DNA from: Patescibacteria group bacterium
Lineage (GTDB): Bacteria; Patescibacteriota; Patescibacteriia; Magasanikbacterales; GWA2-37-8
NCBI GenBank assembly: GCA_022710645.1
Contig: JAKLGL010000001.1
Span: forward strand, 20,614 to 84,613
Length of the DNA stretch: 64,000 bases
Reading direction: 5' to 3'
Shown: in pieces, positions 309 through 53,845 of the stretch
Position numbering within the stretch: the stretch's first letter is position 1
Layout: each line of letters begins with the position of its first letter
The notes under the pieces: model-generated
Database searches by the model: none
What the model saw: only the letters and a program-made list of their open reading frames with translations
What the model was told of the DNA's origin: nothing
Program-made: the position numbers and the translations under genes

Positions 309-971
309 ATGTTTTTATTTTTTCTTGTACTCGTACTCAATGTCGTGATTTCTGTCTGGAATTGCTATGCAGTAGGGATAGCTTGGAAGGACACGATGGC
401 TTTCGGTGGATGGTTCAATAAAACTCTTCTCTGGTCAGGGGTTATCCAGTCGGGTGTAGGATTTTCTATGCCGATAATGCTCATCTTGGGTTTTGGCGCT
501 TCTTTCTTCCTGTCATCCGGAGAAAACCCGATGTTCACACTGGAAGAAGCTGATCAAATCCTGCAGGGAATGTTTTCTCTCTGGTATGTTCTGGTAATTT
601 TTCCTGTCCTTGGATCAGGGTTGGCTATCTGGGCGCATTCGCTCCGTGAAGCTTATCGCAGGCGCGATTTCGGCAGTATTGCGGTAGCCGGATACAACAG
701 CTTTGCCCAGATTCACAACATGGTCAGCGCAGCCAATAACCTTGGCGGAGCGTTTGGAAATGTTGGCGAATTGTTTGGCAAGGCTTTGGATTCCAAAGGG
801 GGAAAAGGGAAAGATAAATTATTCATTCTCTTGATAATCCTGGTTATTGTAGCAATTATTGCCGGTTTCATGATCGCTTTTGCGTTGGTAAGGCATTACG
901 CCTCCAACACCGATTCCAGAATAGAGGAATATGGCGATCAGATTGAAAGGCAAAGATATGCCAACAGATAG
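309..971 (+). CDS. hypothetical integral membrane protein
   Basis: ORF of 220 aa with several hydrophobic segments. It has an AGGAGG RBS and a terminator hairpin at 991-1017. Confidence 0.5.
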   Translation: MFLFFLVLVLNVVISVWNCYAVGIAWKDTMAFGGWFNKTLLWSGVIQSGVGFSMPIMLILGFGASFFLSSGENPMFTLEEADQILQGMFSLWYVLVIFPVLGSGLAIWAHSLREAYRRRDFGSIAVAGYNSFAQIHNMVSAANNLGGAFGNVGELFGKALDSKGGKGKDKLFILLIILVIVAIIAGFMIAFALVRHYASNTDSRIEEYGDQIERQRYANR

Positions 972-15645: not shown

Positions 15646-15700
15646 TGTCATTCTGAGTGAAACGAAGAATCCCTTCAATAAAACTTCAGAATAACGAAAA
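15646..15700. repeat. Dispersed imperfect-palindrome repeat, copy A (partly degenerate right arm)
   Basis: 'tgtcattctgagtgaaacgaagaatccc...cttcagaataacga' matches the left arm of the repeats at 17433, 20121 and 53766. Confidence 0.5.
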
Positions 15701-17432: not shown

Positions 17433-17510
17433 TGTCATCCTGAGTGTAACGAAGGATCTGTAAGAAAAGATTTTGCCTGTTGCAGATTCTTCACTTCGTT
17501 CAGAATGACA
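17433..17510. repeat. Dispersed imperfect-palindrome repeat, copy B (between rbr and the dfx start)
   Basis: Left arm tgtcatcctgagtgtaacgaaggatctg and right arm cagattcttcacttcgttcagaatgaca are near reverse complements. Confidence 0.6.
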
Positions 17511-18654: not shown

Positions 18655-20052
18655 TTAAAAGATAATGTTATTGGGTGTTCGCGGATAGGTGATTACATCA
18701 CGCACGTTTTTCATCCCTGTGAAATACATTATAGCGCGTTCAAAGCCCAGTCCGAATCCGGTATGAGGGAAAGTGCCGAATTTGCGAGAATCCAAATACC
18801 AAGAATAATCATCCGGATTGAGGCCGTGATCTTTTAATTTTTGCGTTAAAATATCCAAACGTTCTTCACGTTGCGATCCGCCGATGATTTCACCGATTCC
18901 CGGCACGAGCAAGTCAGTGGCAGCCACGGTTTTGCCGTCATCGTTGAGGCGCATATAAAACGCTTTTATTTCTTTCGGATAGTTGTAGACAAATACCGGT
19001 TTTTTATAAACGGTTTCTGCAAGATATCTTTCATGTTCGCTTTGCAAACCATCTTCCCATTTTACCGGGTATTCAAATTTTACTTTGGCTTTTTTGAGAA
19101 TTTCAATCGCTTCCGTATAAGTAATTCTGGCAAAATCATCTTTTAGAATATTTTCCAATTTTTCTATCAATCCCGGTTCGATGAATTCGTTGAAAAATTT
19201 CATTTCATCCGGCGCTTTTTCTAATAAATCTTTGATAAGATATTTGACAAATTCTTCGGCCAAATCCATATCATCAAACAGATCGGCAAAAGCTATCTCC
19301 GGTTCAATCATCCAAAATTCATTGGCGTGACGAGCGGTATTGCTATTTTCCGCGCGAAATGTCGGCCCGAAAGTATAGACATTACGATAAGCAAAACACA
19401 TTGATTCCACGGCCAATTGTCCGGAAACGGTAAGATAAGCTTCTTTTCCGAGTAATTCTTCGGAATAATTGATTTTCCCTTCAGCGGTTTTGGGAAGTTT
19501 GTTCAGGTCAAGTGTAGTGACGCGAAACATTTCACCTGCGCCTTCAGCGTCGTTACTCGTGATTATCGGAGTGTGAATATAAGTAAAACCTTTGTTTTCA
19601 AAAAAACGATGGATAGCTTGCGCTACTATGGAACGCGCGCGGAAAGTAGCCATAAAAGTATTGGTGCGCGGACGTAGGTGGGGGACAGTGCGTAAAAATT
19701 CAAAAGAATGACGTTTGGTTTGGATGGGATTACTCAAATCAGAGACGCCGACGATTTCAATACTCTTGGCTTGAACTTCAAAAGCTTGTTTTTCACCTTC
19801 GGACTTCACCAATTTACCCTCAACAATGAGAGATGAACCGGTATAAATATTTTCCAATTCGGAAAAATTTGGCAATTTATCGGTTAAAACGATTTGAATA
19901 TTTTTGTAACATGAACCGTCGTTAAATTCGATAAAGGCAAATGTTTTGGAAGAACGGGAAGTGCGGACCCAACCGGAAAGGCGCACTTCTTTGTCCAAGA
20001 ATTTTTTTGGGTTTTCCCAAATTTGTTTTACTAAGACGTTATTTTTTGACAT
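18655..20052 (-). CDS. asnS: asparaginyl-tRNA synthetase
   Basis: Class IIb aaRS with an N-terminal OB fold. '[21 protein letters not shown]' is diagnostic of AsnRS rather than AspRS. Length 465 aa. Confidence 0.9.
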
Positions 20053-20120: not shown

Positions 20121-20218
20121 TGTCATCCTGAACGCAGTGAAGGATCTGTAAGTAAAATAATTACTTTTTGCAGACCTACCTGCCGGTAGGCAGGTTCTTC
20201 GCTTCGCTCAGAATGACA
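20121..20218. repeat. Dispersed imperfect-palindrome repeat, copy C, with the embedded 20-bp palindromic module cctacctgccggtaggcagg (20175-20194)
   Basis: The same arms as copies B and D. The inner module is shared with 53723-53742. Confidence 0.6.
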
Positions 20219-20265: not shown

Positions 20266-20679
20266 TTAATTGAAAGAAAAAATACGATTTTCTTTCGGAG
20301 GAGTGCTTACCGGAATTACCTGGTTTTTTTTCAGGTAACCGTAAATAAGAACTCCTTCCTTATTTGACCAACACTTCAAAGAAGCACAGCCGATGATTTT
20401 AGTCATCTCGATTTCTTTTTGGTGAAAGGTTTTTTTCTCGCAGATTACGCAAATGTTTTTTGGTAGTTTTTCGATATCCGTTTTTCTGTACAACGCGTAC
20501 AAAGTAACAGGTTCGCCTTCGACAAGCGGATTGTGACACCAAGGACACACAAAATGACTTGTCGTTACTACTTCTTTTTTTCTTCTCTGGAAAAATTTTT
20601 CCAAGAATTTTTCGAAAAAATTTCTCATGATATGCTCCGTATTGAAAGTTTGATAATAAAGAACGACTGCAGTATACAT
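20266..20679 (-). CDS. hypothetical Cys-rich (zinc-finger-like) protein
   Basis: CPWC...CVIC...C..C cysteine pairs. The terminator hairpin gaccccgcagggtc+T8 lies just downstream at 20240-20262. Start may be the internal M at 20626. Confidence 0.4.
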   Translation of the reverse strand: MYTAVVLYYQTFNTEHIMRNFFEKFLEKFFQRRKKEVVTTSHFVCPWCHNPLVEGEPVTLYALYRKTDIEKLPKNICVICEKKTFHQKEIEMTKIIGCASLKCWSNKEGVLIYGYLKKNQVIPVSTPPKENRIFSFN

Positions 20680-20710: not shown

Positions 20711-21016
20711 ATTAATAAAGGCGCGTGTACGGTCACGCGCCAAGGTGTTGATCTTTGCGTTTGTTTGTTCGATTGCCATGGCATAGGGTTGATCCTGGTT
20801 TTCGCATGTAAACAGAGTTCACATCTACTTGCCATCAGGAGGGCTCGAAAGAAACCGTATTCTTTCGGACAAACCAGCGGGCCCCCAAGAAGAGAGCTGC
20901 GCTGGGAGAATGGCCTCCCGGTTTTCACAGATAACGAATCGGCGACGATAATGTGGCGGATTTACCGCGGAGAAAAGAACCGTCGCCCCCTACTCAATCG
21001 CAAACACAAAGAACAA
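20711..21016 (-). ncRNA. candidate ~300-nt structured RNA or cis-regulatory leader in a GC-rich island (unclassified)
   Basis: Perfect TTGACA-17-TATAAT on the minus strand (plus 21047-21052 and 21023-21028). A strong terminator hairpin ggcgcgtg-tacggt-cacgcgcc plus a U-run lies at plus 20711-20741. GC is near 50%. ORFs overlap in three frames with no plausible protein. Confidence 0.4.
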
Positions 21017-21054
21017 CAGATGATTATAGCATAAAACAGAAGATTTGTCAATAT

Positions 21055-53765: not shown

Positions 53766-53845
53766 TATCATCCTGAGTCGTAGACGAAGGATCTGCAAAA
53801 AGCAATAATGCTACTTACAGATTCTTCACTTTGTTCAGAATGACA
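53766..53845. repeat. Dispersed imperfect-palindrome repeat, copy D (between def and fmt)
   Basis: Arms atcatcctgagtcgtagacgaaggatctg and cagattcttcactttgttcagaatgaca, the same family as 17433 and 20121. Confidence 0.6.

Follow-up and report, generated by a model that had tools for sequence, protein, structure and literature searches.

A candidate stand-alone structured RNA gene in Magasanikbacterales and its probable relation to a pseudoknotted RNA at the same locus

Introduction

The stretch of DNA studied here, 64,000 nucleotides of contig JAKLGL010000001.1 (assembly GCA_022710645.1) from a Patescibacteria group bacterium of the Magasanikbacterales and referred to below as the window, contains on its minus strand a GC-rich segment, W, in a slot between a divergent gene for an 84-aa Zn-ribbon protein and a small Cys-rich gene, the latter followed by asnS. 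With a probability of roughly 0.6, we read W as a functional gene for a stand-alone structured non-coding RNA (ncRNA), which probably is a reduced derivative of a second RNA, X, and acts in trans via its junction. W carries transcription signals and a stable fold, shows neither a known RNA family nor a coding signal, has a structure preserved by compensatory changes in a second W-type RNA (W2) of a related genome, and stands in place of X at the syntenic position of other relatives.

Few structured RNAs of 250-350 nt combine conserved junctions with pseudoknots, and those that do have historically proved to be ribozymes, riboswitches or the cores of ribonucleoproteins (RNPs). Bacteria of the Candidate Phyla Radiation (CPR) account for much of bacterial diversity; to our knowledge their non-coding RNA is almost unexplored, and our literature search found no report of such an RNA in them.

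Promoter, terminator and fold of W

The original prediction, made by reading the letters, had pointed to an exact TTGACA-17-TATAAT promoter on the minus strand. The promoter scan bears this out: the site matches the sigma-70 consensus at 12/12 positions, is the sole such site within the 3 kb scanned and is extended by a TG ahead of the -10 hexamer. TTGACA also lies upstream of the RNA in six related loci (L084, L085, L087, L096, L105, L112), in which the -10 element reads TGnTAATAT, TAGTAT, TAACAT or TAAAAT, the window copy being the nearest to consensus. The strong terminator that had likewise been proposed is present as an 8-bp stem with seven GC pairs at 20741-20720, followed by a U-run (UUUAUUAAUC) that is only moderate; similar terminators stand 3' of the RNA in L087, L085, L096, L084, L105 and L112. 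From the likely start at 21017/21016, placed by the position of the -10 element, to the end of the U-tract at about 20712, the transcript would span about 305 nt. The described GC-rich patch of about 50% is equally real, with a GC content of 0.49-0.525 in 200-nt windows across W and of 0.50 in the body closed by helix P1, compared to 0.359 for the whole window. The sequence of W is identical in the JGI and NCBI assemblies. By exact protein matches, the window belongs to a metagenome-assembled genome of Candidatus Magasanikbacteria (GCA_035454185.1; JGI 3300009776 Ga0116154_10000058, from an anaerobic digester).

The W sense strand folds with a minimum free energy (MFE) of -112.1 kcal/mol (z = -4.77), and 0/100 shuffled sequences are equally stable. 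Hereby, the antisense (plus) strand reaches z = -2.1 and the W interior without its closing stem z = -2.4. The closing stem, P1, comprises 22 bp and joins the initial 22 nt to the 30 nt that precede the terminator; its outer 8-9 bp are common to RNA X (GUUGUUCUUUAG/CUAAAGAACAA) and W2, with one compensatory change. The internal hairpin GGCGACG...CGUCGCC, noticed before by eye, appears in the MFE fold as H1. The individual parts are listed in Table 1.

Coding potential and known RNA families

Overlapping open reading frames (ORFs) of 110, 82, 86, 52 and 40 aa span the W region. A multiplexed search of their translations against 5.8 billion proteins retrieved no homologue, and no gene is called in the W region by JGI or NCBI, or in W2 by the source annotation, in agreement with the earlier judgement that these frames encode no credible protein.

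The whole window was compared with Rfam 15 (4227 families) at the gathering score without a match, and at E <= 10 the 801 bases around W returned noise only; at the same threshold, the regions of W, X84, X105 and W2 gave nothing relevant. ARAGORN found no tRNA or transfer-messenger RNA (tmRNA) in the window or the related loci, and the 64-kb window holds no tRNA, tmRNA or Rfam-recognised RNA at all. The hallmarks of tmRNA (tRNA-like domain, CCA end, tag frame) are absent from W, and no Rfam tmRNA match covers it. For 6S and signal recognition particle (SRP) RNA there is no Rfam match either; the fold is a branched junction and lacks the SRP domain IV motif. A T-box or riboswitch is likewise matched by no Rfam model, and no pairing that competes with the terminator is found in the sequence. 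Of the RNase P signatures, CR-I (GGAAAGUCCGGG, with a bulged U in P4) and CR-V (ACAGAA..CCGGCUUA) are both missing from W. Rfam thus assigns W to no family, and Rfam and ARAGORN agree with the original prediction, which had seen no RNase P, tmRNA, SRP, 6S or T-box signature. W gave only chance matches when phages and plasmids were searched by blastn. An origin of the W interior from a miniature inverted-repeat transposable element (MITE) or inverted repeat was considered and dropped, as no second copy was found in any sequence examined.

A second W-type RNA

A second RNA of this type, W2 (about 246 nt), is located in L112, whose helicase is 77% identical to that of the window. The order of elements is the same as in the window, i.e. 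Zn-ribbon gene, promoter, W2, terminator, promoter, Cys gene, repeat element and asnS. The W2 promoter reads TTGACA-17-TAAAAT with the TG extension, its terminator has 10 bp (GAGGCGCGUG..CACGCGCCUC), and a further promoter, TTTACA-17-TATAAT, precedes the gene for a 109-aa Cys protein. W2 folds better than shuffled sequences (z = -2.8).

A single-sequence nhmmer search does not link W and W2. Local alignment does so with z = 4.2-4.7 (0/300 shuffles), and four junction strings, GAUUCGUU, AAAAC, UGAUGG and CCAGGAUCAACCCU, are identical in both RNAs. The helices, by contrast, vary while remaining paired. P2' changes from GUAGGG/CCCUAU in W to ACAGGG/CCCUGU in W2 by one double and one single change, H1 from GGCGACG/CGUCGCC to UGUGGUG/CACCACG (4/7 pairs double-changed) and P3' from CGGGAGG/CCUCCUG to CAAAGAAAU/GUUUCUUUG (5/7 pairs double-changed), while the outer part of P1 differs by a single swap of U-A to A-U. 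P1, P2', H1, P3' and the UGG/CCA helix are thus compensated around the shared junction motifs. In the core alignment A5 of W and W2, 96.8% of the cells are paired and 12/31 pairs are double-changed, whereas slid controls reach 35-57% paired cells. The region is conserved in W2, and the pattern of substitution is RNA-like, i.e. it keeps the pairing, and not protein-like.

A covariance model built from A5 (R2) recovers both RNAs at full length, W (21003-20773) at 30.5 bits (E 2e-5) and W2 at 23.5 bits, with the motifs GAUUCGUU and AAAAC matched in each. Since this recovery follows by construction, R2 is informative only as to the absence of other matches, and there is no other match over 244 kb.

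RNA X in related genomes

Syntenic loci were fetched via homologues of the neighbouring UvrD/AddB-type helicase (identity to the window's: L084 83%, L085 79%, L087 74%, L090 77%). In L084, L085, L087 and L096 the interval from the Zn-ribbon gene to asnS is occupied by a GC-rich gene for an RNA of about 320-330 nt, which we term X. The X genes share TTGACA and a TGn-type -10 element, the closing stem given above and a terminator of the type GGCGCG...CGCGCC. In these relatives the asnS promoter directly follows the RNA and the homologue of the Cys protein is encoded elsewhere. L090 has only about 170 nt from the Zn-ribbon gene to asnS and no RNA gene there; the RNA gene has therefore been gained, lost or moved among close genomes. 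Rfam recognises no family in the X loci at the gathering score, nor anything relevant in X84 and X105 at E <= 10.

A single metagenome scan with a strict 20-base pattern of the X 3' core (CGAATTCCCC-N5-9-GGGGNCTGGCT) returned 19 loci. Profile search and inspection identified X homologues in 5/19 of them, namely L096 and L110 (the same close sequence) and the distant L105, L100 and L098, and the family as a whole ranges from 276 to 342 nt. With L098 assigned to Candidatus Taylorbacteria by its AlaRS (OHA20843.1), X is found in both Magasanikbacteria and Taylorbacteria and hence in two CPR classes or more. The pattern-matching contigs, three from JGI and two from ENA, compare with dozens of Magasanikbacteria helicase homologues in the JGI data, which hints at a patchy distribution of X, on evidence that is weak given so strict a pattern. 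Viral contigs contain no X core pattern, and neither profile, pattern nor the X model R1 locates a copy of X in the rest of the 64-kb window. The pattern also matched none of the contigs from the JGI sample in which this genome occurs, so that W would appear to be the only gene of its kind in its genome. X has different neighbours in different lineages (asnS, alaS, thiI/polX or an HD-domain gene) and is a stand-alone gene.

Conserved strings of X, with long-range strands in parentheses, are GGGAAUA-(CCGGGAU), (NNNAGC)-AAAG, GGUCGUC and UGAAU-(GG...CC)-A, followed near the 3' end by GRCCGAAUUCCCC-(AUCCCGG)-GGGUCUG-(GCUNNN); the strings AGCAAAG, UGAAUGG, CGAAUUCCCC and GGGUCUGGCU are nearly invariant. 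Helices P1, Px, Py and Pz covary, Py being supported by three double-changed pairs. As Px and Py cross, X contains a pseudoknot. In the core alignment A3 of seven X sequences, which leans to the structure because it was anchored by hand with artificial linkers and has one C duplicated in the L098 row, 97% of the cells are paired and 22/34 pairs are double-changed, a result reached by 0/500 shuffles and to be compared with 29-46% in slid controls. Mini-models were built from hand-anchored cores instead of a full-length model because MAFFT misaligned helix Pz in the X 3' domains. The resulting covariance model R1 finds 7/7 X loci.

Two peculiarities concern single members. In L105 the variable X hairpin Hc is a perfect look-alike of a tRNA T-arm (GGGGUUCAAUUCCCC) and draws weak matches of the tmRNA and mascRNA models; it is not conserved in the other X members. 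In L100 a long, near-perfect palindrome with GGGACTAGGGGCTAGGGATTAGG-like units lies just 3' of X and attracts spurious microRNA model matches.

Relation of W to X

W and X share the slot, TTGACA with a TGn -10 element, a GC-rich terminator, the outer part of the end-closing stem P1 and the ends GUUGUUCUUU...AAAGAWCAA. In both types a hairpin comes directly after the first long-range strand. P2' with the following H1 takes in W and W2 the topological place that Px, whose 3' strand comes after the ..AA..CCC element, takes in X, and P2' may be the counterpart of Px. The near-clade X RNAs show, by reading, a P3'-like helix just before (A)AUGG (CGGAGC/GCUCCG, CGAAGC/GCUUCG, CCAAAGC/GCUUUGG), and the order of elements is common to both types: an A-rich strand, P3', (A)AUGG, a helix and, near the 3' end, CCAGGnnnAA..CCC, in its fuller form CCAGGnnnAA(UU)CCC(C)UGUCU. 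W2 has CCCUGUCUUCG in place of CCCCUGUCUCGG of X. Its interior aligns globally with X87 at z = 3.65 (1/300 shuffles) and with X85 and X96 at z 2.7 and 2.4. Unlike X, W lacks the hairpins Ha and Hb, the string GGGAAUR, CGAAUUCCCC and Py (AGCAAAG paired with GGGUCUGGCUnnn); it is about 50 nt shorter, evolves much faster in sequence and is missed by the X hidden Markov and covariance models. The loss of both Py strands together with the flanking invariant nucleotides is a coherent joint loss, to which that of the 5' hairpins Ha and Hb is added.

Several points weigh against our reading of W and its descent from X. The W interior aligns with X interiors at z -1.4 to +1.0, i.e. at about 0, while interior controls between X members lie at z 3-48, apart from a single value of 1.1; X remnants recognised by eye inside W were dropped for this reason, having no statistical support. 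The invariant X core CGAAUUCCCC-N6/7-GGGGUCUGGCU is absent from W, where the best matches have 5/11 and 4/12 mismatches, compared to 0-1 in all X RNAs. Neither W nor W2 contains the Py strands (NNNAGC followed by AAAG; GCUNNN immediately 5' of the P1 3' strand). The X nhmmer profiles and R1 (E <= 10) miss both W and W2, and the W model misses X. As the models fail to find W, its descent from X has to be argued from synteny, the common termini and weak motifs in colinear order. The W type comprises two sequences only, and A3 and A5, both assembled by hand on sequence anchors with artificial linkers, lean to the proposed structure. Finally, the helicase tree groups the window with L084 (X type) and L112 with L090 (empty slot); since the window and L112 thus fall into separate sub-clades, a simple single vertical origin requires the locus to have recombined.

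By the N-terminal 100 aa of AsnRS, in turn, the window is closest to L112, and the Cys gene is found between the RNA and asnS in W-type loci only, its homologues lying 3' of asnS in L085, L087 and L096. On these grounds, the block of RNA, Cys gene and asnS seems to have a history of its own, shaped by recombination between related genomes. A synteny search with AsnRS added only distant (<= 64%) relatives from outside the CPR. Taken together, we consider it rather probable that the W type is a remodelled X and not an unrelated RNA that displaced it.

Alternative explanations

That W is unrelated to X and displaced it within the same expression cassette, with promoter, outermost P1 nucleotides and terminator as the sole shared parts and W still a functional stand-alone ncRNA, would fit with interiors that cannot be aligned (z about 0), with reciprocal covariance models that do not cross-detect and with a W type present in two genomes that do not form sister branches in the helicase tree; the relocated Cys gene and the repeat element at the W-type locus also suggest a cassette-like rearrangement. 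However, illegitimate recombination could hardly exchange the interior exactly and yet spare about 9 bp in both P1 strands, the motif order of the W type is colinear with X, and W2 lies weakly above chance against X87, X85 and X96 (z 2.4-3.7), which makes displacement unlikely. Alternatively, W could be a decaying relic of X of which promoter and terminator survive and the RNA function is lost. The Py strands and all invariant X motifs are indeed gone, the L090 slot has no RNA, and W and W2 align globally with z < 2 where X84 and X87 reach z = 48 over similar protein distances. A relic, though, would not be expected to keep 12 pairs by compensatory change and identical junction motifs in W and W2, a -10 hexamer nearer to consensus than that of any X gene, a GC content of still 50% against the 36% of the genome, and an interior that folds better than shuffles; we regard decay as quite improbable.

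Of the two readings offered by the original prediction, the stand-alone ncRNA is upheld by the transcription signals, the lack of an Rfam family and the compensation in W2, whereas the leader with riboswitch or attenuator function is not. In favor of a cis-acting leader, or of the RNA half of a type III toxin-antitoxin system, that controls the Cys gene, RNA, terminator and Cys gene are co-directional in both W-type genomes, and the interrupted U-tract (UUUAUUAAU) might permit some read-through. Yet a promoter-like site separates terminator and gene (TTTACA-17-TATACT in the window, TTTACA-17-TATAAT in L112), no antiterminator pairing is visible with the RNA ends locked in P1, Rfam offers no riboswitch or T-box match, and X-type genomes carry the Cys homologue 3' of asnS, away from the RNA. 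Given this separate promoter for the Cys gene in the window and in L112, and a terminator stem free of competing pairings, W is not a leader in our reading; the toxin-antitoxin variant was rejected because W has no ToxI-like tandem repeats and the Cys gene a separate promoter. Control of the Cys gene by W in either form thus appears very improbable. A further reading takes X, and by descent W, as an extremely divergent RNase P RNA. In CPR bacteria such RNAs are diverged, with scores that often lie under the Rfam cut-offs (PMC8172020). X is closed by P1, has two crossing long-range helices near its 3' end and a hairpin between the 5' strands, as in the P2/P3/P4 topology, and contains short look-alikes (GGAAUACCGGG, GAGCAAAGG, UGAAUGG). 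Against this, RF00010, RF00011 and the other RNase P models have no match at E <= 10 (361-471-nt inputs), the X profile and R1 miss E. coli rnpB, X blocks match E. coli M1 RNA at chance level (p 0.29-0.98), the P4-like helices of X covary freely instead of being invariant, an ACAGAA...GGCUUA element is lacking, few metagenome contigs have the X core compared to dozens of Magasanikbacteria genomes in the collection, and the W type has lost the pseudoknot. Based on the chance-level M1 blocks, the lack of an rnpB match, the covarying helices and the missing CR-V, we reject RNase P, including a circularly permuted form, as hardly tenable.

Comparison with known RNA systems

The OLE, ROOL, GOLLD and raiA classes (PMC11109978, PMC12286853) resemble W in being stand-alone, GC-rich multi-helix RNAs of AT-rich genomes with conserved junction nucleotides, covarying helices and a patchy distribution. 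W, which stems from a CPR bacterium, matches none of them in sequence or model (Rfam 15), and OLE, ROOL and GOLLD are much larger. Bacterial RNase P RNA (RF00010/RF00011) has in common with W a housekeeping-style promoter, a closing P1 and a similar size class, and with X a pair of long-range helices that cross close to the 3' end (P2/P4); W and X differ from it by the lack of CR-I, CR-V, a P4 with bulged U and an Rfam score, and W in addition by the lack of a pseudoknot. 6S, tmRNA and SRP RNA are abundant stand-alone RNAs and, like W, have paired 5' and 3' ends. However, 6S RNA is a rod with a central bubble whereas W is predicted to form a branched junction, tmRNA has a tRNA-like domain, a tag ORF and a CCA end, none of which ARAGORN detects in W, and SRP RNA has the domain IV motif that W is missing.

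Proposed mode of action

Returning to W as a stand-alone ncRNA, its transcription would start from the perfect, extended -10 sigma-70 promoter and stop at its own intrinsic terminator, which would give an abundant, stable and highly expressed RNA. Its ends would be held together by the long P1, and P2', H1, P3' (with H2 and H3) and the short UGG/CCA helix with H4 are predicted to radiate from one central junction. We envisage that W acts in trans through this folded junction core, either as a platform for binding a protein or ligand or as a scaffold for RNA processing. The junction is taken as the active part, and trans action as its mode, because sequence is kept only in the junction strands while the helices vary and stay paired. 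W most likely does not act by antisense pairing and most likely does not control the downstream gene. W most probably derives from the pseudoknotted X by loss of Py and the surrounding invariant nucleotides; with the X pseudoknot lost, W probably keeps only part of the X activity or has a shifted function.

Features of the locus and neighbouring genes

Between the W terminator and the Cys gene lies the promoter-like TTTACA-17-TATACT site. The Cys gene, which has its own terminator, had been described as a 137-aa gene; that reading is possible from an ATG at 20679, but the NCBI call, along with a GGAG ribosome-binding site, points to 120 aa from the ATG at 20628. A search for homologues of the 120-aa protein returned the protein itself as the sole match. 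Together with two further small Cys-rich, Zn-ribbon-like proteins near W (84 and 112 aa) it belongs to no Pfam family. The 84-aa protein is kept beside the slot in 7/7 related genomes, and the position of the 120-aa family relative to asnS differs between W-type and X-type loci.

The best relatives of AsnRS outside the clade are from Calditrichia, Clostridia and Bacilli with only 58-64% identity, and no other CPR AsnRS is among the 80 loci kept; these two results suggest that this Magasanikbacteria sub-clade may have acquired the gene horizontally. A dispersed 23-nt repeat, GTCATTCTGAGCGAAGCGAAGAA, occurs in four copies with 0-3 mismatches in the window, where none is expected by chance, and may be a repetitive extragenic palindromic (REP)- or MITE-like element. 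The copy at 20195 lies in the interval from the Cys gene to asnS, where it adjoins a hairpin, CCTGCCTACCGGCAGG, and L112 holds a comparable hairpin-rich element.

Table 1. Coordinates of W, its signals and neighbours in the window, and of RNAs and other elements in related loci (positions of the window unless a locus is named).
Feature	Positions	Strand	Basis or remark
-35 hexamer TTGACA	21046..21051	-	Promoter scan; part of the 12/12 sigma-70 match
Extended -10, TGcTATAAT	21023..21031 (TATAAT 21028-21023)	-	17-nt spacer to -35; TG precedes
W body, ~272 nt, start to P1 end	20746..21017	-	Fold; start placed from -10; transcript would continue to ~20712
P1 5' strand UUGUUCUUUGUGUUUGCGAUUG	20995..21016	-	MFE pairing with 20775-20746
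P2' 5' strand GUAGGG	20988..20993	-	Pairs with CCCUAU 20783-20788; MFE fold
Hairpin H1, GGCGACG...CGUCGCC with inner GCGG/CCGC hairpin	20941..20987	-	MFE fold
Junction strand GAUUCGUU-AUCUGU-GAAAAC	20921..20940	-	Motifs GAUUCGUU and AAAAC kept in W2 (alignments A4, A5)
Helix P3', CGGGAGG 20914-20920 / CCUCCUG 20836-20842	20836..20920	-	MFE fold
Hairpins H2 and H3	H2 20874-20905; H3 20844-20868	-	Enclosed by P3'; MFE fold
3' junction: AUGG, H4 (20806-20826), CCAGGAUCAA (20789-20798), P2' 3' strand CCCUAU (20783-20788)	20783..20835	-	
P1 3' strand CAAUCGAACAAACAAACGCAAAGAUCAACA	20746..20775	-	MFE fold
Intrinsic terminator GGCGCGUG-ACCGUA-CACGCGCC (20741-20720) with UUUAUUAA	20712..20741	-	8 bp, 7 GC
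Promoter-like TTTACA-17-TATACT	20699-20671	-	
Small Cys-rich gene, 120 aa	20266-20628	-	NCBI call
AsnRS (asnS)	18655-20052	-	
Zn-ribbon protein, 84 aa	21143-21397	+	
Cys-rich protein, 112 aa	21830-22168	+	
23-nt repeat, copy 1	15647-15669	+	
23-nt repeat, copy 2	17487-17509	-	
23-nt repeat, copy 3	20195-20217	-	
23-nt repeat, copy 4	53822-53844	-	
W2	L112 1184-939	-	
Cys protein gene, 109 aa	L112 812-483		
Hairpin-rich element	L112 ~380-470		
X	L084 9172-8854	-	
X	L085 3075-2748	-	
X	L087 8623-8294	-	
X	L096 6240-6565	+	
X	L105 9367-9708	+	
X	L100 1176-1469	+	
X	L098 3162-2887	-	
X hairpin Hc, T-arm look-alike	L105 9434-9448	+	
Palindrome 3' of X	L100 1514-1606		
Slot without RNA gene	L090 4510-4690		

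Conclusions

At one locus, two related but structurally distinct RNAs occur, neither of which matched an Rfam 15 family in our scans or came up in the literature we searched. We tentatively propose, at somewhat less than even odds, that W and X together form an undescribed CPR/Patescibacteria class of large structured RNAs, in which X would be ancestral and the pseudoknot-less W would have replaced it in some lineages; part of the same tentative proposal is that the X core may resemble the near-invariant cores of ribozymes or highly specific RNPs. Sequence searches, or covariance searches with a model of a single type, would miss half of the W/X family. If the proposal is true, it would add a new RNA class for small-genome bacteria and a case of rapid in situ remodelling of an RNA gene, and the pair of W and X would provide a built-in comparison for what the core does.

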